Source: a virus (lineage: Duplodnaviria; Caudoviricetes). Taken from it: DNA of 28,462 nt. The position numbers and the translations under genes are program-made. The stretch is from positions 1 to 28,462 of IMG/VR virus record IMGVR_UViG_3300048999_000131; one strand, given 5' to 3'. Shown one piece after another: positions 3-12,545 of this stretch. Position 1 is the stretch's first letter. Every line of letters starts with the position of its first letter. The notes below the pieces were generated by a model. It saw only the letters and a list, made by a program, of their open reading frames with translations. It made no database searches and was not told the origin of the DNA.

Positions 3-686
3 CAGGCGTACATCATGTCCGGCACCGAGGGCGAAGTCCGTGTGACTCCGTTCGAGGGCAAGCGTGTTCCGGTGCGGTTCTTCCGCATCGCCTCGCGTCC
101 CGCGATCCGCAAGGAGGACCTGTTCTACCTGCGTATCAACGCGGTCGAGCAGGCCCAGGACGAGACCAAGCAGGCGATCCTCAAGCAGGAGGACACTCGC
201 CTGCTCGTCCTGCTCCAGGCCGCGCTGACGGACTACGCCACGCGCCCGGACCACACGGTCACCCCGAACCACAACATCACCGAGGCGTCGGGCTACCTGA
301 CGCCGGGGTCGCTGTACTCGGCCGTCGCGATGACGGACATGCACGAGCTTCAGAGCGCGCGCATCCTCATCAACCCGTTCGACTTCCGCGACCTCTACCG
401 CTGGGACATCAACCAGACGGGCTGGGCCTTCAAGGACCGGGTCGTCGCGGGCGAGACCATCACCTCGTTCGGTGAGTTCCAGATCCAGCGGTCGATCATC
501 GTGCCCCAGGGCAAGGTGTTCCTCACGCCGGAGCCCAACTTCTTGGGCGTTTTCCCCGTTCTGTACAGCTTGGACGTGGAAGAGAACCATATGGTCGAAG
601 CGTTCTGGAAGGGATGGGTATTCGACGAGATGGTCAACATGTCGATCCTCAACCCCCGGGGCATCGCGACCATCACCAAGGCCTAG
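3..686 (+). CDS. Major capsid protein, 3' part (5'-truncated by window)
   Basis: Frame is open from the window start (QAYIMSGTEGEVRVTPFEGKRV...). Ends with a capsid-like C-terminus (WVFDEMVNMSILNPRGIATITKA) followed by a strong hairpin, and lies upstream of head-tail and tail genes. Confidence 0.8.
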   Translation, partial: QAYIMSGTEGEVRVTPFEGKRVPVRFFRIASRPAIRKEDLFYLRINAVEQAQDETKQAILKQEDTRLLVLLQAALTDYATRPDHTVTPNHNITEASGYLTPGSLYSAVAMTDMHELQSARILINPFDFRDLYRWDINQTGWAFKDRVVAGETITSFGEFQIQRSIIVPQGKVFLTPEPNFLGVFPVLYSLDVEENHMVEAFWKGWVFDEMVNMSILNPRGIATITKA

Positions 687-704
687 CAGGGCCCCTGACC
701 TGCC

Positions 705-740
705 GAAAGGCCCCCTCGGATCTCTCCGAGGGGGCCTTTC
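705..740. terminator. GC-rich hairpin: probable capsid terminator and 3' hairpin of repeat unit A on the minus strand
   Basis: GAAAGGCCCCCTCGGA-tctc-TCCGAGGGGGCCTTTC, a perfect 16-bp stem. Confidence 0.85.
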
Positions 741-815
741 CCATGCCTTGCCGCACCCAACCATGCCCTACCATGCCAAGCCCCGCGTTGCCGAGACCCT
801 GATGCTATCAGGGTC
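705..815 (-). ncRNA. GGY-NN pentamer repeat unit A (putative guide RNA)
   Basis: Minus strand: palindrome GACCCTGA-TAGCA-TCAGGGTC (815-795), then TC GGC-AA CGC-GG GGC-TT GGC-AT GGT-AG GGC-AT GGT-TG GGT-GC GGC-AA GGC-AT GG, then hairpin 740-705. Confidence 0.8.
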
Positions 816-821
816 ATGACT

Positions 822-941
822 GAGGGCGCCACCCCGAAGGATGACGCCCTCCCATGCCATGCCGTGCCGATCCCCGCCTGGCCGCACCATGCCGTGCCCT
901 GCCACGCCGCTCCGGGACAAGCCTTGATGACCTTGACTCTA
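822..941 (-). ncRNA. GGY-NN pentamer repeat unit B (about 15 NN)
   Basis: Plus strand reads NN-RCC repeats at 852-925 (NN = AT AT GT GA CC TG GC AT GT CT AC GC GG AA TT). Hairpin at 822-851 and its own promoter at 965-936. Confidence 0.8.
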
Positions 942-965
942 TACAACCCCATGCACTTCTGTCAA
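936..965 (-). promoter_or_regulatory. Sigma70/HrdB-type promoter driving unit B
   Basis: Minus strand TTGACA (965-960), 18-nt spacer, TAGAGT (941-936). Confidence 0.8.
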
Positions 966-969
966 CGAC

Positions 970-1084
970 GAAGGGGCCTCCCGTAGGAAGCCCCTTCTCC
1001 TTGCCATGCCTCACCAAGCCTGGCCGCGTCTTGCCAGACCTCGCCCAGCCTCGCCATGCCCCGATGACCCTGACTCTATCAGGG
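970..1084 (-). ncRNA. GGY-NN pentamer repeat unit C (about 13 NN)
   Basis: Hairpin 970-997. NN-RCC tract 999-1062 (TT AT TC AA TG GC TT AG TC CA TC AT CC). Palindrome CCCTGA-CTCTA-TCAGGG at 1068-1084. Confidence 0.8.
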
Positions 1085-1108
1085 CCTGGTAGGGTAGCGC
1101 CACCCCAT

Positions 1109-1182
1109 GGTGGATGTAGCTCAGCAGGTAGAGCCCCTGGTTGTGGTCCAGGAAGTCGCGGGTTCAAGTCCCGTCATTCACC
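1109..1182 (+). tRNA. tRNA-His (GTG)
   Basis: Acceptor stem GTGGATG/CATTCAC plus the G-1:C73 pair typical of bacterial tRNA-His. D arm GCTC/GAGC, anticodon arm CCTGG-TTGTGGT-CCAGG (GTG at 1143-1145), T arm GCGGG-TTCAAGT-CCCGT. CCA is not encoded. Confidence 0.95.
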
Positions 1183-1191
1183 CTCAACGAC

Positions 1192-1346
1192 GAGAACCCC
1201 CTCAGTGAGGGGGCTCTCTCCATGTCCTGCCACGCCATACCCAGCCCAGCCCGACCGTGCCAAGCCCGTCCGGGCCATGCCGCACCTAACCGGGCCTTGC
1301 GGTGCCGTGCCCCGCCTAGCCTCTGCCCCTGACTCTATCAGGGGCA
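1192..1346 (-). ncRNA. GGY-NN pentamer repeat unit D (about 21 NN, the longest)
   Basis: Hairpin 1192-1218. Tract 1219-1323 (AT CT AC AT CA CA CG GT AA CG GG AT GC TA GG TT GT GT CC TA TC). Palindrome TGCCCCTGA-CTCTA-TCAGGGGCA at 1324-1346. Confidence 0.8.
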
Positions 1347-1350
1347 TGAC

Positions 1351-1453
1351 GAAGGGGCCACCCGGAGGTGACCCCTTCTCCCTGCCGTGCCACGCCGTGC
1401 CAAACCTGGCCCAACCATGCCACACCACACCCCGCCTAGCCGTACCTCGCGGA
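1351..1453 (-). ncRNA. GGY-NN pentamer repeat unit E (about 15 NN)
   Basis: Hairpin 1351-1378. Tract 1379-1453 (CT GT AC GT AA TG CA AT AC AC CC TA GT TC GA). No palindromic leader; it starts about 18 nt after the stop codon at 1471. Confidence 0.75.
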
Positions 1454-2642: not shown

Positions 2643-2672
2643 ACATTACTACAAGAAATCCTGGAGCGTCAA
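2643..2672 (-). promoter_or_regulatory. Sigma70-type promoter for the RAMP-like operon
   Basis: Minus strand TTGACG (2672-2667), 18-nt spacer, TAATGT (2648-2643), about 40 nt upstream of ATG 2603. Confidence 0.65.
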
Positions 2673-2676
2673 TGAC

Positions 2677-2788
2677 GAAGGGCCCCGGATTTTAAACTCT
2701 GGGGCCCTTCTCCATGCGGTGCCTTACCCGGCCCGGCCCTGCCTAGCGATGCCACGCCGCGCCACGAGGGCTTCACTTTATCAGGGTC
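2677..2788 (-). ncRNA. GGY-NN pentamer repeat unit F (about 11 NN)
   Basis: Hairpin 2677-2710. Tract 2711-2767 (AT GT TT CG CG CT TA AT AC GC AC). Degenerate leader GACCCTGATAAAGTG on the minus strand, overlapping the stop of the HTH gene. Confidence 0.78.
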
Positions 2789-3077
2789 ATTCCGGTTCTG
2801 GATAGGCATCCTCGCGTCGCTTGCGCGGGGTGACGTGGATGCCCGTCTGCCGACGCCATTTCTTCTCGAACTCCTCGACGTCACGGAGGAGCCAGATGCG
2901 TCCGCAGTCGAGCTTCTTCCAGTGGGGGCAGCGGGCCTCGGTGATCTCGCTGACACGCTGCTTCGAGACGTGCCAGCGCTTCGACAGCTCAGACAGACCG
3001 AGCACATCCATCGTCGTGAGATCGACGAGGACGGGCCCGGACTCCTCTGTGGTCTCTTCCAGGGATGCGGTGCTCAT
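2787..3077 (-). CDS. Small HTH DNA-binding protein (AlpA/Xis-like)
   Basis: DVLGLSELSKRWHVSKQRVSEI...LDCGRIWLLRDVEEF fits an HTH-plus-wing pattern. The start codon is uncertain (3077, or the later Met of MDVLG). Confidence 0.65.
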   Translation of the reverse strand: MSTASLEETTEESGPVLVDLTTMDVLGLSELSKRWHVSKQRVSEITEARCPHWKKLDCGRIWLLRDVEEFEKKWRRQTGIHVTPRKRREDAYPEPE

Positions 3078-3809: not shown

Positions 3810-4496
3810 ATGACGGAGAAGAACGACGAAGTTCCCGAGGACGCCAAGCGGGACTCCCAGGGGGTCCCCTACGGCACCGGTGACGAGACGGGCCAGAAGA
3901 CGTACGTCCGCGAGGGTGACACCCCCGTGGACACGGATCAGTCAGACCGGCCGGAGCCCAAGGGCTACTACGAGAGCCTCGATCACGTTCCGGACCCCAC
4001 GGCCATGACCGGGACCCTGGAGACCAGCGGTACCGGCGGAGGTGCTCACGAGACCCTGCGGGGCACCACGGGTGTCTTCGACGACCTGTCGCCGGTCGTG
4101 GAGCAGAACGGTCTCCCCCTGTACGGCGCGGACGCGGTCCAGGCCCTCTCGGGGGACTCCACCGGCCAGCCCTCTCCCCACGGGGGTGCGGACGCCCAGG
4201 TCTCCCAGAAGTCCGCCGGACCCGAGAGCGCGTCCTACAACGAGAACGTCATCGCCGGAGGCGGAGATCCCAACCTCCGCCAGAGCGGTGAGCCCGCAGG
4301 AGCCTTCACGACCGCTGTGACGGTCCAGGAGGACCCGGAGGGCACCGGAGCCCAGGAAGAGGGTGACGACGGCTCCAAGGAGCAGTCAGAGCCCGAGACG
4401 AAGGCTCCGGCGAAGAAGACCGCCGCGAAGAAGACGACGGCCGCCGCTCGTAAGACCTCTACGGTCGAGCCGACCGACGACACCAAGAACGCCTGA
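3810..4496 (+). CDS. Hypothetical acidic, low-complexity protein with a basic PAKKTAAKK tail
   Basis: RBS GGAGGAG; typical codon bias. Confidence 0.7.
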   Translation: MTEKNDEVPEDAKRDSQGVPYGTGDETGQKTYVREGDTPVDTDQSDRPEPKGYYESLDHVPDPTAMTGTLETSGTGGGAHETLRGTTGVFDDLSPVVEQNGLPLYGADAVQALSGDSTGQPSPHGGADAQVSQKSAGPESASYNENVIAGGGDPNLRQSGEPAGAFTTAVTVQEDPEGTGAQEEGDDGSKEQSEPETKAPAKKTAAKKTTAAARKTSTVEPTDDTKNA

Positions 4497-6059: not shown

Positions 6060-6719
6060 ATGTCCACCACAAGCCAGCGCATGGGGCTCAAGATCCCCGA
6101 CGGGTCGGACCCGTTCCTGCGGACCGACTTCGTCCAGAACTACAACACCTTGGACAGCTATCCGGGTGTCAGGATCTGCACCTCCACCACGCGACCCTCC
6201 TGGGGCTCGGGCCAGGCGGGCATGCTCATCCTGGAGACCGACACCCGCCGGAACATGATGTGGACCGGCACCACGTGGCGGGAGATGCTCTACGGCCCGG
6301 CGGTCTGGTGGGGCTCCACACGCCCTCAGGTGACGGCGGGCGCGAACACGATCCTCACGTACACGGTCGGCACCTTCACCGTGAACCGGCCCGGCACCAT
6401 CCTGGGCCTGCTCACCACGGAGATGGCCTTGTCCTGCCGGGGTCTGAACGGCTGCAACGTCCGCTGCATGCTGGACGGCGTGGACGCCAATATCGACACC
6501 GGCAACGGCGGTGAGTTCATCGCCAGCGCACTGCCCAACAGCTCCACCTTCGGCACCGGCAAGTCGGTCCAGACGGTACCTTCGATGGGTATCCGCAACA
6601 TCTCGGCCGGTACCCACTCCATCGGCCTGCGGGTCCAGACGTCGACCAGCAACGTCGCGGATCTGAAGCTCACCTCCGTCCGCGCCATGGCCGTCTTCGT
6701 CAACGGCACGGACCGCTAG
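6060..6719 (+). CDS. Putative minor tail/fibre-type structural protein
   Basis: N-terminus resembles fibre proteins (MGLKIPDGSD...TTRPSW...GMLILETDT..MMWTGTTW); beta-rich C-terminus. Confidence 0.55.
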   Translation: MSTTSQRMGLKIPDGSDPFLRTDFVQNYNTLDSYPGVRICTSTTRPSWGSGQAGMLILETDTRRNMMWTGTTWREMLYGPAVWWGSTRPQVTAGANTILTYTVGTFTVNRPGTILGLLTTEMALSCRGLNGCNVRCMLDGVDANIDTGNGGEFIASALPNSSTFGTGKSVQTVPSMGIRNISAGTHSIGLRVQTSTSNVADLKLTSVRAMAVFVNGTDR

Positions 6720-6727
6720 GAGTCCTC

Positions 6728-7597
6728 ATGGCCCTGTACTGGAACGACCGCAAGTACGTCAGCCAGTACGCCATCGATCCGGTGGGGATCAAGCTCGTCC
6801 GCAACCAGGTCCCCATCGACGCCGACGACGGCGTGCAGGCGACGATGTTCTCGGAGACGACCGGCAACCAGGTCTTCACGCGGCCTGCGGACCATCCGGG
6901 CACCGGCGAGTACGAGGTGTCCTTCGCGAGCGCGGAGACGTCTGTACCGGGGCCGTACACCCTCACGTGGACCTACTCGGTTCTGGGCAGCCAGGAGTAC
7001 GTGGAGTCCGGGATCGAGATCGGTCCGGCCGCCCCCTCGTACGACTATCTGCCGGAAGCTTTCAAGGATCTCGTGGAACAGACGGTGCTCCGTCTGGCCG
7101 ACACGATCGACTCCCCGGGCGGTGGCCCGAACCTCACCACGTACGTGCAGTCGAAGTACGGGCGCGGCAGGATCGCCGAGCTGATGTTCATCGCCCTGGG
7201 CCGCATGAACACGATGGCCCAGCCCTTCCAGACGTACACCCTGGACGGGGTCGGGGGAGCCCAGTTCCCGGTGGCCCAGTGGGGACCCCTCCTGGGCACC
7301 CTCACGTGGATCGAGACCCTCAAGCACCTGATCCGCTCCTACACCGAGCAGCCGACCTTTATGGGTTCGGGAGACGTCTCCCGGCTGGACCGGCGCGACT
7401 ACACCCAGCGGTGGCGGGATGTGCTCATGGAGGAGGAGGCGGCGGCCAAGAGCCAGCTCGATGTCTTCAAGATCGCCTCCATGGGTCTCGGCCGACCGGC
7501 CGTACTGATCTCCGGCGGGGTGTATGGCCGATATGGCCCAACTAGGATGGCGGGGTCGGTAGCTGCCCGTCCGAGGTATTGGACCAGATTTTACTGA
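6728..7597 (+). CDS. Putative head-to-tail adaptor
   Basis: RBS AGGAG, Ig-like N-terminus with a helical C-terminus, and position in the head-tail module. Confidence 0.5.
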   Translation: MALYWNDRKYVSQYAIDPVGIKLVRNQVPIDADDGVQATMFSETTGNQVFTRPADHPGTGEYEVSFASAETSVPGPYTLTWTYSVLGSQEYVESGIEIGPAAPSYDYLPEAFKDLVEQTVLRLADTIDSPGGGPNLTTYVQSKYGRGRIAELMFIALGRMNTMAQPFQTYTLDGVGGAQFPVAQWGPLLGTLTWIETLKHLIRSYTEQPTFMGSGDVSRLDRRDYTQRWRDVLMEEEAAAKSQLDVFKIASMGLGRPAVLISGGVYGRYGPTRMAGSVAARPRYWTRFY

Positions 7598-7617
7598 GTT
7601 TGTCTAGTAATGTCCAT

Positions 7618-7646
7618 TTGTCAGGGCACCAAGCACCTGATAACGT
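7618..7646 (+). promoter_or_regulatory. Sigma70-type promoter with the same palindromic -10 context as the repeat units
   Basis: TTGTCA (7618-7623), 17-nt spacer, TAACGT (7641-7646), embedded in CCTGA-TAACG-TCAGG. Confidence 0.55.
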
Positions 7647-7651
7647 CAGGG

Positions 7652-7763
7652 CTGCGGTGAAACCGGTCCCTCCGGCGGATCCGGCCCCCAGTGGCGAGAG
7701 GGATTTTAAAAACCACTGGCTAACGATGGGCCCCCGGCGCGCTAGAACGCGTGGACGGGGGCC
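7652..7763 (+). ncRNA. Candidate structured ncRNA
   Basis: Intergenic and downstream of the promoter. Interleaved pairings TCCCTC/GAGGGA and CCAGTGG/CCACTGG, with terminal stem GGCCCCCG/CGGGGGCC. Confidence 0.4.
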
Positions 7764-7797
7764 TGTCGCATGTCTGACAACTCCCCGGAAAGGGTGG
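7764..7797 (+). promoter_or_regulatory. Putative late promoter motif
   Basis: TGTC-N20-GAAAGGGTGG. Confidence 0.6.
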
Positions 7798-7808
7798 AGG
7801 TGGTCCCC

Positions 7809-7985
7809 ATGGCCTATTCGGTCACCATCGCGACCGGCAAGACGAATGTCGTGCTCCCCAACGGGAACCTGTACCAGGCGGGTGATGTGGCGATCCTGTC
7901 GGACGATCAGTTCGGTCAGATGCTCGCCGCCACGAAGACCGCCATCTTCTCGGCGTCCTCGATCATCGCGGTTCCCAACAGCTAG
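7809..7985 (+). CDS. Small hypothetical structural protein (58 aa, MAYSVTIATG...)
   Basis: RBS GGAGGTGG before ATG 7809; typical codon bias. Confidence 0.65.
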   Translation: MAYSVTIATGKTNVVLPNGNLYQAGDVAILSDDQFGQMLAATKTAIFSASSIIAVPNS

Positions 7986-8091
7986 ACCCTGATAGAGTCA
8001 GGGTCAGCAAGGCATCGCAGTGCCGGGCTCGGCTGGGTGGGGCAAGGCAGCGCTAGGCAAGGGGAAGGGCCCTTCGAGAGAAGGGCCCTTC
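7985..8091 (+). ncRNA. GGY-NN pentamer repeat unit G (orphan, 11 NN)
   Basis: GACCCTGA-TAGAG-TCAGGGTC (7985-8005), then AGC-AA GGC-AT CGC-AG TGC-CG GGC-TC GGC-TG GGT-GG GGC-AA GGC-AG CGC-TA GGC-AA GGG, then hairpin GAAGGGCCCTTC-gaga-GAAGGGCCCTTC (8064-8091). Confidence 0.82.
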
Positions 8092-8095
8092 GTCG

Positions 8096-8129
8096 TGTCC
8101 TGGCCAGATCGAGCCCGATGAAGGGGTGA
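8096..8129 (+). promoter_or_regulatory. Putative late promoter motif
   Basis: TGTC-N20-GAAGGGGTGA. Confidence 0.65.
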
Positions 8130-8150
8130 AGGATCCATCCCGGAGGCGAC

Positions 8151-9695
8151 ATGGCCCGCTATTTGTACCCCCAGGATCGTCTGGTCTTCCGCTATGGCGC
8201 TCCTGGGACTCCGCTGTACTCCCCTCAGGGGGAGACCCTCACGATCTACGCCGACGCGGGCGGCACGACTCTGGCGAGCATCCAGGAGCCGGACGGGACC
8301 CCTACGGACTCGACCCTGGACATCGGGGCGGACTGCCTGATCCCGGAGTTCAAGGGACCCGACGCGGCGACCACCGTGTGGGCCAAGAACCGTGCCGGGG
8401 ATCTGACCCCCTTGTTCGCCCAGACCGGCCAGTTCCTCACGCCTGGTTCCTCGGCGGTCACCTCTGTCAACGGTCACACGGGCGCGGTAGTCCTGGACTC
8501 GGCCGATGTGGACGCCTATCCGCAGGACGACGGCACGGCTCTGGCGGGGCGCGTCACCACCGTGGAGTCGGGCCGCCTGCTGGCGGTCAACAACCTCTCC
8601 GACCTGAGCAACCCCGCCTCGGCCCGTGCAGCCCTCAGCCTGGGCAACGCGGCCGTCCGGTCGGTCGGCACCACGAACAGCACCGTGGCCGCCGGAGACG
8701 CGCCCTCTGCGGCCGTCACAGCCCACATCGCGGCCTCGGACCCCCATGGTGACCGCGCCTACGCGGACGGGAGCAAGCTCGCCAAGAGCGCCAACCTCTC
8801 CGACGTGGCCAACCCGGCGACCGCTCGGACGAGCCTGGGACTGGGCTCGGCAGCCGTCAGGGCAGTAGGTGCGACCTCTGCCGACGTCGCGGCCGGAGAT
8901 GCCCCTGCGAACGCCGTCACAGCCCACGTGGCGGCTTCCGACCCGCACGGGGACCGCGCCTTCGCCACGGCGGCCATCGGGACGCACACGGCCGCCACGG
9001 ACCCTCACGGGGACCGTGCGTACGCGGACACGGCGAAGCTCGCGAAGAGCGCGAATCTCTCGGACGTCCAGACCCCCGCCACGGCCCGGACGAACCTCGG
9101 CCTGACCGCCATCGCCACGGCCGCCTTCGGCACCACGGCGGGCACCGTGACCCAGGGCAACGACAGCCGTCTCACCAACGCCCGTACGCCGACCGCTCAC
9201 GCCGCCACGCACGCCTCTGCGGGCTCGGACCCCATCACGCTGGCCCAGAGCCAGGTGACCGGCCTCACGGCAGCCCTGGGCACCTACCTGCCCCTCGCGG
9301 GCGGCACCCTGACCGGAGACCTGGTCCTCCAGGGCACCAGCAAGGCGTACCGGCTCCGGCGTGGGGGAGCGGGCCTGGACTTCGAGGCCGCCGGGGTCGA
9401 CATGGTTCTGTCGAACTGGTCGGCCGGAGACTTCACCGGGACCCAGCGCAGCTACATCCGCTTCTCGGCCGACGCCCAGAACATGCAGGTCGCGGGCAAG
9501 GTCGAGTTCGTGGATGCCCTGTACGGCTCGGCCAAGCACATCCTGGACGGCGCTACGAACACCGCTGCCTTCTTCGGTGCGGCAGCGGTCGGCAGGCAGA
9601 CCGTGAGCGGCTCCAAGGCCTCCGGAGCGGCCTTGACGAGCCTCCTCGCGGCCATGGTGAACCTCGGCCTGATCACCGACTCCACGACGGCCTAG
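8151..9695 (+). CDS. Tail fibre-like protein with internal repeats
   Basis: VTSVNGHTGAVVL motif, three NLSD(L/V)xxPAxARxxLGL-type repeats, three HxAAxDPHGDRA repeats, and YLPLAGGTLTG. Confidence 0.75.
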   Translation: MARYLYPQDRLVFRYGAPGTPLYSPQGETLTIYADAGGTTLASIQEPDGTPTDSTLDIGADCLIPEFKGPDAATTVWAKNRAGDLTPLFAQTGQFLTPGSSAVTSVNGHTGAVVLDSADVDAYPQDDGTALAGRVTTVESGRLLAVNNLSDLSNPASARAALSLGNAAVRSVGTTNSTVAAGDAPSAAVTAHIAASDPHGDRAYADGSKLAKSANLSDVANPATARTSLGLGSAAVRAVGATSADVAAGDAPANAVTAHVAASDPHGDRAFATAAIGTHTAATDPHGDRAYADTAKLAKSANLSDVQTPATARTNLGLTAIATAAFGTTAGTVTQGNDSRLTNARTPTAHAATHASAGSDPITLAQSQVTGLTAALGTYLPLAGGTLTGDLVLQGTSKAYRLRRGGAGLDFEAAGVDMVLSNWSAGDFTGTQRSYIRFSADAQNMQVAGKVEFVDALYGSAKHILDGATNTAAFFGAAAVGRQTVSGSKASGAALTSLLAAMVNLGLITDSTTA

Positions 9696-10428: not shown

Positions 10429-11784
10429 ATGTCCCTTCTGTGGGTCCGCACCGCTGCGGCGGAGTGGTACAAAGCCCGGAACACGGCGGACATGGCCGCC
10501 ATGAAGCGGCACCGCCAGCAGATCATGGGCGCCCACGGCGTGAAGGACTATCAGGCGGGCATCGCCCTGAGGCCTGTCTATCAGGCCCTGTCCCGGAGCA
10601 AGATCGGCCAGATCAGCGCCAAGGACGCGGGCTTCGCCTCTTCTCCCCGGCAGGATTCCTACGGCAGTGACGTGCTCCCCTGGGATGACGATCACCCCTT
10701 GAACGAGCACGAGAACTGGCACAAGATCCCCGTCACGGACGTCTCTCTGCGCGGGCCCGTCCATGCCACCCAGGACGGCGTGGGAGCCAGCCTCGTGGCC
10801 CACAATCTCTTCCACCCCGGGAAGCTCCCTCCCACGGAGTGGCCCGGCCAGGAGGGCACCAAGGGGCTCGGGGACCCCGACGTCGACCCGGACACCCACG
10901 ACCACGCCGAACGTGTGGAGAACGTAGGAGCCGACGAGGCCAGCAAGGTCCCGAGGTTCTACCGGAAGAACGGCCAGCTCCATGTGGCCGACGGACATCA
11001 CCAGGTGGCCGCCGCACTGCTGATGAAGAAGCCCCACATCCAGGGCCGTGTCTGGGACGAGTCGGCCATGGGGAAAGAGGCCATGGCGTGGTGGAACAAC
11101 GACGAGGACCACGACTACGAGGAGGACCTGCGCCCAAAAGGTGAAAGCCTCGCAGAGCGGGGCGGCCGGTTCGTCAAGCAGATCTCCGATGCCCACGGGA
11201 TCCCCGAAGGTCATGCCCGTTCTGTCGCCAAGACCCTCCTGGGCCATGTCCAGAACGGGACGATGGACCCCCGGCAGTACGGCTTCGCCTCGGCCGCCCA
11301 CGACCGCGAGGGCCACTACTCCCTCCCGCAGACGCGGGCCCTGATGGATCACAAGACCTGGGCGGGCAAGAAGCCCGAGTCGGTGGACATCTCCCAGGGT
11401 GTGCATGCCACCCAGAACTACGTGGATCCCGACCGGGTGGCTCACAACGTCTTCCACCCGGGCAAGAAGGCCCCCTGGTCGGAGCCGCACGCCACGGGCG
11501 ACCCCGACTACGACCCGCACTGGGACGGAGACGAGGACGAAGAGGGGTCCGGCATGGAGATGGACCACGACTCGGTCCAGAACCGGAAGCTGGAGAACCA
11601 CACCCGCTTCGTCCGCCGGAACAACGGGGACCTGGAGGTCGCCGACGGGCACCACAGGGTTGCGGCAGACCTTTTGCTGGGGAAGACCCACACCCCGGGT
11701 GTAGTGCTCCACGAGAACGAGCTGAACAGCCACATGCAGCGCTTCAGCTTCTCCCTGACCGCCCTCTTCGAGAACTGGAACTGA
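10429..11784 (+). CDS. His-rich protein with two tandem ParB/Srx-like domains
   Basis: Duplicated VHATQ...VAHN(L/V)FHPGK and VADGHH(Q/R)VAA motifs; RBS AGGAG. Confidence 0.7.
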   Translation: MSLLWVRTAAAEWYKARNTADMAAMKRHRQQIMGAHGVKDYQAGIALRPVYQALSRSKIGQISAKDAGFASSPRQDSYGSDVLPWDDDHPLNEHENWHKIPVTDVSLRGPVHATQDGVGASLVAHNLFHPGKLPPTEWPGQEGTKGLGDPDVDPDTHDHAERVENVGADEASKVPRFYRKNGQLHVADGHHQVAAALLMKKPHIQGRVWDESAMGKEAMAWWNNDEDHDYEEDLRPKGESLAERGGRFVKQISDAHGIPEGHARSVAKTLLGHVQNGTMDPRQYGFASAAHDREGHYSLPQTRALMDHKTWAGKKPESVDISQGVHATQNYVDPDRVAHNVFHPGKKAPWSEPHATGDPDYDPHWDGDEDEEGSGMEMDHDSVQNRKLENHTRFVRRNNGDLEVADGHHRVAADLLLGKTHTPGVVLHENELNSHMQRFSFSLTALFENWN

Positions 11785-11786
11785 TC

Positions 11787-12545
11787 ATGAGCCTGCTGTG
11801 GAGGACAGCGGTCCGTCGTACGGCCGCCTGGGAGCCCCGGAATTCCGTGGAGCACATCCACCCCTCGGAGATGGAGAACGACTACCACACGCCCCTCCAG
11901 CGCGAGCACGTGAGCCGCATGGCGGACTCCATCAAGCAGCACGGGTACAGCCCGGAGAGGCACGGTCAGCTCGGTCTGAACGTCACCGACGAGGGCGAGA
12001 ACATCTACCACCACACCTCTGGTACGGACACGCACCCGGACGACGCGCACCCTCACGAGCACCTCCTGAAGGCGCTCCAGGAGACAGGCCACGGAGACGT
12101 GCCGGTCCATGTTCACGACCAGTCCTCCACCGAAGAGCACCCGGCGCCGGAGTACTACCACGGCACCACGGTGGAGGACCTGGAGCGTATTCACCCGAAC
12201 CACGGCAATTCGGGGAACTTCGGCCAGGGAACGCACGCCAGGGGCTATGCGTACGCCACGGGCAAGAATTCGGCCTGGAACTACGCGGAGAAGGCCGCCG
12301 ACAACCAGGAGGGCGTTCCGCACGTCTACAAGGTCTCCCCGCGCGGACCCGTGGAGGAGGACCCGCACTGGGAGAACGGCAACAACCGGGGCAACAACCT
12401 GGATGACGTGCGCTCGAAGCACGGCTTCGACACCCAGGGCGAAGAGGAGATGCCCCAGCACCTCCAGAACTACTACCACGACCGGATCCACGGCGAAGAG
12501 GGCGAGGATCACGGGTACGGCGAGGACGAGGGCGGGGACTGGTAG
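11787..12545 (+). CDS. His-rich protein: ParB-like N-terminal fragment plus Arr-like ADP-ribosyltransferase domain
   Basis: HVSRMADSIKQHGY, then YYHGT...YAYAT...AWNYA...HVYKVSPRGPVEEDP, resembling the Arr family pattern (FYHGT...VYxVEPTGxxExDP). Confidence 0.62.
   Translation: MSLLWRTAVRRTAAWEPRNSVEHIHPSEMENDYHTPLQREHVSRMADSIKQHGYSPERHGQLGLNVTDEGENIYHHTSGTDTHPDDAHPHEHLLKALQETGHGDVPVHVHDQSSTEEHPAPEYYHGTTVEDLERIHPNHGNSGNFGQGTHARGYAYATGKNSAWNYAEKAADNQEGVPHVYKVSPRGPVEEDPHWENGNNRGNNLDDVRSKHGFDTQGEEEMPQHLQNYYHDRIHGEEGEDHGYGEDEGGDW

Follow-up and report, generated by a model that had tools for sequence, protein, structure and literature searches.

A stand-alone VIPR guide beside a near-matching tail-fibre-like gene in an actinophage-like myovirus, and its likely use against sister phages

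Results

A VIPR locus among phage structural genes

The window analysed here is the whole of a 28,462-nucleotide stretch of viral DNA (IMG/VR record IMGVR_UViG_3300048999_000131, positions 1 to 28,462), in which a Vipr homologue, an accessory gene and seven tracts of GGY/NN pentamers accompany phage structural genes, with one of these tracts, unit G, lying upstream of a tail-fibre-like gene that it nearly matches (Table 1). This 28.5-kb piece of a large myovirus-like phage runs from a major capsid gene through the tail sheath to baseplate genes, and the four runs listed for it, one of which may be its source, are soil metagenomes from one study. The capsid protein is ~62% identical to those of cluster C mycobacteriophages and Gordonia phage Skog, which makes an actinomycete host likely; Streptomyces, assumed in the initial annotation, is not established by this resemblance, nor is any other genus.

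Table 1. Features of the window, with positions counted from its first nucleotide
Feature	Position	Strand	Remarks
Unit A near-target in major capsid gene	354..382	+	18/24, reached by 1/300 shuffles
Guide units A-E, array	700..1451 (tracts 743-1451)	-	Downstream of vap-like gene, split by tRNA-His
Guide unit A tract	743-797	-	Near-match in the adjacent major capsid gene
tRNA-His	1110-1183	+	Separates units C and D of the guide array, which is on the other strand
vap-like accessory gene, 183 aa	1471..2022	-	Directly after vipr
vipr gene, 192 aa	2025..2603	-	Match to SUSP1 Vipr (PDB 36PP), E value 2.9e-37, residues 4-186
Guide unit F	2680..2790 (tract 2714-2763)	-	Upstream of vipr
Unit G, whole	7985-8095	+	Promoter-like element, guide tract, linker and hairpin
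Palindromic promoter-like element	7985..8005 (core 7988-8002)	+	Heads unit G
Whole cassette, 107-nt insertion	7989..8095	+	Between upstream stop codon and downstream promoter-like motif
Guide tract, 11 GGY/NN-type pentamers	8006..8060	+	First ten NN pairs read as specifying the target, last as scaffold
Purine-rich linker and 12-bp GC hairpin	8061..8095	+	Putative vrRNA 3' tail or terminator
Promoter-like motif TGTCC...GAAGGGGTG of downstream gene	8096..8128	+	Intact behind the insertion
Tail-fibre-like gene, 514 aa	8151..9695	+	PHROG tail fibre matches, best E value 1e-11
Resident near-target, codons 4-13 of tail-fibre-like gene	8160..8189	+	17/20 with one-base skip

In the alignment with PDB 36PP, the Vipr homologue is identical to the protein of Escherichia phage SUSP1 at H17, K33, R39, K82, G87, R138, D177, and R179, and differs from it at W178 (Tyr) and K88 (Arg), so that most of the contact residues named in the structure paper are kept; homologues from Felixounavirus-type coliphages are ~40% identical to it. 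A search of viral contigs with this protein gave no confirmed match. The vap-like gene also directly follows vipr in L010, L016, and prophiBWHA-1, and its sole homologue by tblastn comes from a mycobacterial prophage, coliphage vap1 not being matched. No nuclease family was detected in its product by Pfam (no match above cut-off), and its weak helix-turn-helix-like structural neighbours fall under the bar for naming. Units A to E and F lie on the minus strand and unit G on the plus strand, with the 11 pentamers of unit G falling within the ~9–16 described for VIPR guides (10.64898/2026.04.26.720920). Because the GGY/NN tracts, the Vipr homologue, and the accessory gene occur together, the locus is, as read from sequence, a VIPR locus, to which unit G belongs as a guide at a distance of 5.4 kb from vipr. 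The initial annotation had called this unit an orphan, which holds for its stand-alone position but not for the genome, where vipr is present.

Anatomy of unit G

The palindromic element at the head of unit G recurs ahead of units A, C, and D and of a non-coding element at 7636, giving five exact pattern matches in the window against none in 100 shuffles, and a related element lies upstream of 30 of the 37 guides parsed in the family. It is presumably a promoter. The non-coding element (7636-7760, plus strand) carries the motif without pentamers, is partly conserved in the relative G001, and has no Rfam match.

Seven of the 11 pentamers have the canonical GGY triplet and four deviate at its first base, with such first-position variants being common among the family guides. 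As the tail-proximal NN is AG, AT, or AA in all 30 promoter-bearing family guides, the last NN of unit G is read as scaffold, leaving ten informative pairs. The region 8003-8100 has a predicted fold of -53.6 kcal/mol (z -4.4), and the layout of the tail is shared by the family guides, this layout itself being a criterion by which guides were called. A scan for sigma-70 promoters and U-tract terminators did not recognise the elements of unit G, and an Rfam search of the window recognised the tRNA alone. In another run of the study, a 242-nt contig agrees with 7895-8136 at every base, so unit G is not an assembly artefact.

A gapped match to the start of the adjacent gene

The reverse-complemented NN pairs of unit G read TT TA CT TT CC CA GA CG CT AT TT. 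As the initial annotation had described, the last ten of these match positions 8160-8188 of the tail-fibre-like gene at 17 of 20 bases, in codon frame and with the skipped base on the wobble position, the gap to the site being 99 nt when counted from the last pentamer and 68 nt when counted from the hairpin of the tail (previously given as 70 nt). Two of the three mismatches, at 8163 (rG-dT) and 8184 (rU-dG), could form wobble pairs, whilst that at 8167 is a true A-A mismatch. The Leu codon TTG, which the resident gene uses at the first of these positions, accounts for 16 of the 457 Leu codons in 19 open reading frames (ORFs) of the window, in line with its earlier description as rare.

A score of 17 was reached by none of 5,000 shuffles of pair order and by two of 5,000 base shuffles over both strands of the whole window, and by none of 5,000 shuffles within ~300 nt of unit G, which bears out the earlier view that the match exceeds chance. 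Other skips perform less well in the window, with scores of 13 for skip 0 and 15 for skip 2. When all 11 pairs are kept the match is 17/22, reached by eight of 2,000 shuffles, whilst automatic parsing, with pentamers of the promoter and tail taken in as well, gave 19/30, which 42 of 300 shuffles reach and which is not significant; the significance therefore depends on the correct guide boundaries.

The N-terminal 100 residues of the tail-fibre-like protein resemble viral hypothetical clusters, with Head_binding being a lead only. The TGTCC... motif ahead of the gene occurs twice in the window against 0.01 expected and is conserved in all five aligned phages, and is presumably the promoter of this gene.

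Alleles of the target in related phages

Scanning 5.0 Mb of related sequence (81 records, both strands) places the best site for guide G in the G002 orthologue of the adjacent gene, which scores 19 of 20 plus one wobble; none of 300 shuffles reaches 19, and skips 0 and 2 give 15 and 15. Five close alleles were obtained as DNA, with the resident (17) ranking below G002 (19) and G001 (18), level with L090 (17), and above G005 (16), and a distant homologue in G030 scores 18. G002 is a complete genome with no vipr match and no detected guide. Of 31 further related records, the N-terminus of the target gene was found in G003 only, with the same sequence there as in G002; it gave one locus in metagenome contigs and no match in annotated phages.

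The commonest protein allele, Y-L-F-P-Q-D-R-L-V-F, occurs in five of ten other protein clusters, and the resident departs from it only at 8163 (silent, to TTG) and 8167 (Phe to Tyr). Among these ten clusters residue 5 is Leu in eight, and residue 6 is Phe in eight and Tyr in two. At codon positions 1 and 2, the resident differs from the majority at two of 20 bases in the footprint and at none of 40 in the next 20 codons. The initial annotation had counted the Ile/Val mismatch among the changes by which the resident gene escaped; however, all five close DNA alleles carry GTC (Val) at residue 12, and the ten other clusters have Val in nine, Thr in one, and Ile in none, so this mismatch is a property of the guide rather than a resident escape.

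The perfect target that had been supposed to exist in a relative was not recovered, with the exact gapped pattern giving no match in viral contigs. A relaxed pattern gave six matches, three of them known related records and three unrelated sequences taken as chance, and a genome scan allowing Val or Ile gave two, in archaeal and Bacteroidota genomes (non-actinobacterial), also taken as chance. Contigs from the four DNA runs yielded no sensitive allele of a relative either, a negative to which no weight is given.

The insertion site and a second carrier

The 107-nt cassette is absent from the same site in G001, G002, and L090, and the site is occupied by a related guide in G005. G001 is 93.5% identical to the window over 25.7 kb; at 7400–8900 identity falls to 0.83–0.90 in most bins, with one intergenic bin at 0.61, against mostly 0.93–1.00 on both sides, and similar dips occur at 3950–4400 and 11000–11450. 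A possible HNH gene upstream in L090 was below the cut-off (E value 0.05) and was not used. Searching viral contigs for unit G with a long pattern gave no match, and the core pattern matched G005 only.

G005 is vipr-positive, 76% identical to the window, and carries 18 detected guides, which form two arrays besides about eight single units scattered over the genome. Its guide at this insertion point differs in its hairpin and in the gene upstream, yet 14 of 16 NN bases agree with guide G, more than in any other of 666 guide pairs (next 12), and it, too, reads the P-Q-D-R core. The allele of G005 itself has a Gln-to-Ser change in this core and scores 11/16 against its own guide, compared with 13/16 for the G002 allele, the two guide carriers thus departing from the common allele at different codons. 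The two guides may share descent or may have arisen twice. Another guide of G005, at 107839, matches a distant record at 15/16 (2/300 shuffles) and is not adjacent to it, so non-adjacent targets are also possible.

Guides beside near-matching genes across the family

The 37 family guides come from eight of 35 records, staggered arrays being mostly missed by the guide finder. Each was compared with related orthologues of its own ±1.5 kb flanks using 200 shuffles, and five matched at p 0.005, the shuffle floor, where ~0.2 would be expected by chance. The sites of these five lie 100–726 nt away, with the self score below the best relative in all five; four of the five fall within the capsid gene, and the guide that reads them is the array unit closest to that gene. 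Guides of L010 and G011 read one capsid site from opposite strands, and both carriers have a silent Leu TTG and a Ser AGY there; for each guide 52 of 61 dereplicated relatives match better than self, though these relatives are related to one another and the counts are not independent. Unit A of the window scores 16/18 in a relative against 15/18 in self (p 0.005), with no perfect related allele, as all 80 related loci have Arg where the guide spells Gln or His. No convincing target was found for units B to F in the window or the 81 records, and a 26/38 match of unit D was rejected, as 12 of 300 shuffles reach it.

Several further arrangements were seen near capsid genes and among guides. L008 (G004), a fragment that gave no vipr match, has a guide (6562-6606, minus strand) next to its capsid gene; this guide matches the vipr gene of the window near its start at 14/16, which is not established as a target, given that 15 of 300 shuffles reach a 15/16 match seen elsewhere. 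L019 and L028 carry staggered, overlapping GGY/NN arrays and a different accessory gene directly downstream of the capsid gene, so that by its sequence features a different VIPR type occupies the same post-capsid hotspot. G006 (57035-58131 and 151052-151116) holds a second VIPR subtype of the family, with another motif upstream of its guides. The capsid region of G005 has the most Leu TTR codons (six) among 26 close relatives.

Other features of the window

Unit D (1222-1321, minus strand) has 20 pentamers, above the 9–16 described for vrRNAs. An ORF of 112 aa upstream of vipr (2669-3007, minus strand) overlaps unit F and has no PHROG or Pfam match, and an ORF among the structural genes (11787-12545, plus strand) carries a Pfam Arr-ms domain (rifampin ADP-ribosyltransferase-like, E value 1.6e-7).

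Discussion

Unit G likely silences the tail-fibre-like gene of co-infecting sister phages, with the resident copy likely escaping. This reading is supported by the Vipr homologue in the same genome, the 19/20 match in G002, and the empty sites in related phages, and further by the related guide and broken own allele of G005, the family adjacency test, and the Leu/Ser recoding. It is also in keeping with published guides, which target rival elements (10.64898/2026.04.26.720920), and with vrRNA-targeting guides, whose self scores fall below their non-self scores according to 10.64898/2026.10.15.759431. The proposal of the initial annotation, that the guide is aimed at an allele of a relative and that the resident gene has escaped, is in part supported by the better fit of G002 and the broken allele of G005, but the resident allele is not uniquely low in its score.

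By analogy with SUSP1, the RNA of unit G would be transcribed from its own promoter-like element and loaded with Vipr supplied in trans. The complex may then pair with codon positions 1 and 2 of codons 4–13 on the coding strand of the sibling gene, ~30–60 nt behind its promoter-like motif, and so block transcription. The resident changes affect two neighbouring pentamers close to the tail, numbers 9 and 8 of 11, and would weaken self-binding. In a cryo-electron microscopy series, every intermediate showed resolved tail-proximal subunits, and the direction of assembly appears to be 3' to 5' (10.64898/2026.04.26.720927); since target engagement appears to start at the tail, positions 8163 and 8167 likely matter. 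A guide against a gene shared with relatives would be safe only when travelling with a resistant allele, which may be why the guide adjoins its target: recombination between relatives would pair the guide with a sensitive allele, and guide and resistant allele would therefore persist as a linked block. The adjacency is best explained by such linkage.

A number of observations weigh against this interpretation. Self-binding by guide G is possible, as its 17/20 match (85%) exceeds the 80% cut-off used for calling natural targets (10.64898/2026.04.26.720920), one of the two private mismatches (8163) can wobble, and the structure paper (10.64898/2026.04.26.720927), where the words mismatch, seed, and wobble do not occur, describes no mismatch tolerance. 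Four of the 11 scaffold triplets are non-canonical. The five close DNA alleles are a small sample, in which the guide-less G001 and L090 also score low, at 18 and 17, differences that could represent their own escape or ordinary N-terminal variation, and Tyr at residue 6 is found in two of the ten other clusters, which may or may not carry a guide. The G005 guide at the shared site is not significant alone (p 0.53). Across the family, 32 of the 37 guides have no adjacent target, and the finding that self falls below the best relative is biased, since the score of the relatives is a maximum. For unit A only 30 of the 61 relatives match better and 15 equally well, and for the L012 guide 11 of 61 match better, with its best match being a minority Ser AGC allele present in two relatives. 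Rare first-position codons are not enriched over the capsid region of eight carriers compared with 18 others (p 0.25); recoding, if adaptive, is thus local. Finally, co-infecting phages could supply in trans the product of a structural gene that has been silenced, so that silencing alone may be of doubtful benefit.

This last difficulty keeps alive a further model, unlikely in our estimation and compatible with silencing rather than exclusive of it, in which VIPR guides are RNA-guided, nuclease-free homing elements between sibling phages. Vipr on the allele of a relative would cause a break or a stalled fork, with repair copying the resistant allele together with the guide; that is, a 107-nt cassette would insert beside a conserved gene, the Vipr R-loop would mark the related allele, and the cassette would be copied into the relative with a resistant allele recoded through six-fold Leu, Ser, or Arg codons. 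Such homing would explain a benefit in spite of complementation in trans, and the layout is like that of free-standing homing endonucleases (PMC2988022), which are intergenic with a site hundreds of bases off in a conserved neighbour. The presence of related guides at a single insertion point in two genomes whose upstream genes differ, and the dip in identity to G001 around the site, are also consistent with it; however, comparable dips occur at two other places, the vap-like protein has no detected nuclease family (the window being only part of the genome), the published activity of type II systems is repression, and linkage alone accounts for the adjacency.

Weak binding of the guide to the resident gene may instead tune the dose or timing of the tail fibre, with the 85% match, the two mismatches able to wobble, the position of the site just behind a promoter-like motif and 99 nt from the guide, and the similar self near-match of unit A all pointing in this direction. 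We consider such self-regulation improbable, as the guide-less relative G002 fits better than self, in G005 the related guide departs from the allele of its own genome (11/16, core broken), close relatives lack unit G, a trans-acting RNA needs no adjacency, and no self match of at least 80% is found in three published guide sets (10.64898/2026.04.26.720920). It also seems doubtful that unit G is a decaying relic, or that its target is some phage or satellite outside the present sample with Ile at residue 12, the fit to the neighbouring gene reflecting shared ancestry only. The searches of viral contigs and genomes that yielded no perfect target, the AT read by both guides where sampled relatives have GT or AC, and the four non-canonical triplets would suit this explanation, whereas unit G retains an intact promoter element, tract, and tail, changes at the first scaffold position are frequent among guides of the family, two phages of 76% identity have the core pairs in common, and guide G finds its best match in 5.0 Mb in an orthologue of the gene next to it. 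That the match arose by chance is scarcely credible: seven units were available for testing in the window and the wrongly bounded parse is not significant, yet no pair-order shuffle reached the observed score, and the codon register, the better match in a relative, and the related guide at the same site in G005 speak against coincidence.

Compared with the known type II exemplars, Escherichia phage SUSP1 and a Pseudomonas fulva prophage (10.64898/2026.04.26.720920, 10.64898/2026.04.26.720927), the locus is alike in its Vipr homologue with most RNA- and DNA-contact residues, in combining vipr with one accessory gene, in placing a single guide upstream and the array downstream, in its GGY/NN tracts with structured 3' tails, and in the one-base skip on the codon wobble position. 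It differs in belonging to an actinophage-like myovirus clade and in that most of its guides are each headed by a palindromic promoter-like element and end in a simple predicted hairpin. Published targets of VIPR are satellites, prophage regulators, vipr genes, and guides, with no self match of at least 80% for the P. fulva, type III, and type V guides (10.64898/2026.04.26.720920), whereas the probable target here is the related allele of a structural gene of the phage itself, with self at 85%. As a stand-alone guide outside the operon, unit G resembles the solo vrRNAs of F5 satellites and SUSP1-family phages; according to 10.64898/2026.10.15.759431, however, these either have no vipr in their genome or lie beyond 20 kb of it, and use borrowed protein, whilst unit G has its own vipr 5.4 kb away and an adjoining near-target and is stand-alone in layout only. 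The same source states that escape needs amino-acid-determining positions, in contrast to the silent Leu/Ser switches seen here, which fall on codon positions 1 and 2 at positions the guide reads.

The likeness to the free-standing homing endonucleases of T-even phages, known for intronless homing and marker exclusion (PMC2988022), lies in intergenic insertion near a site in a conserved neighbour, and as for homing elements the site is in a neighbouring gene conserved among relatives, some of which have the empty allele. Unlike these endonucleases, unit G is a non-coding guide and no nuclease was detected in the VIPR locus, so the comparison is an analogy only. The VIPR literature covered, 10.64898/2026.10.21.760802 included, contains no description of a guide adjoining a resistant allele of its own genome, a coverage that extends neither to target tables (data S3 and supplementary tables 16–18) nor to subscription journals. 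The VIPR system itself is known; what is new, judged on this comparison, is the arrangement of a guide beside a mismatched allele of its own genome.

In the published picture VIPR attacks satellites, prophages, and rival VIPR loci and spares its own genome, with the skipping of wobble positions closing off silent escape. The locus described here suggests a further use, in which self is discriminated from close relatives on a shared structural gene and the guide is kept by a resistant allele, and it suggests a loophole, in that silent switches in six-fold codons fall at positions the guide reads. The natural allele series of 19, 18, 17, 17, and 16 of 20 provides a test set for the mismatch and wobble tolerance of VIPR, and the layout of guide plus allele makes the question of homing between sibling phages directly testable.

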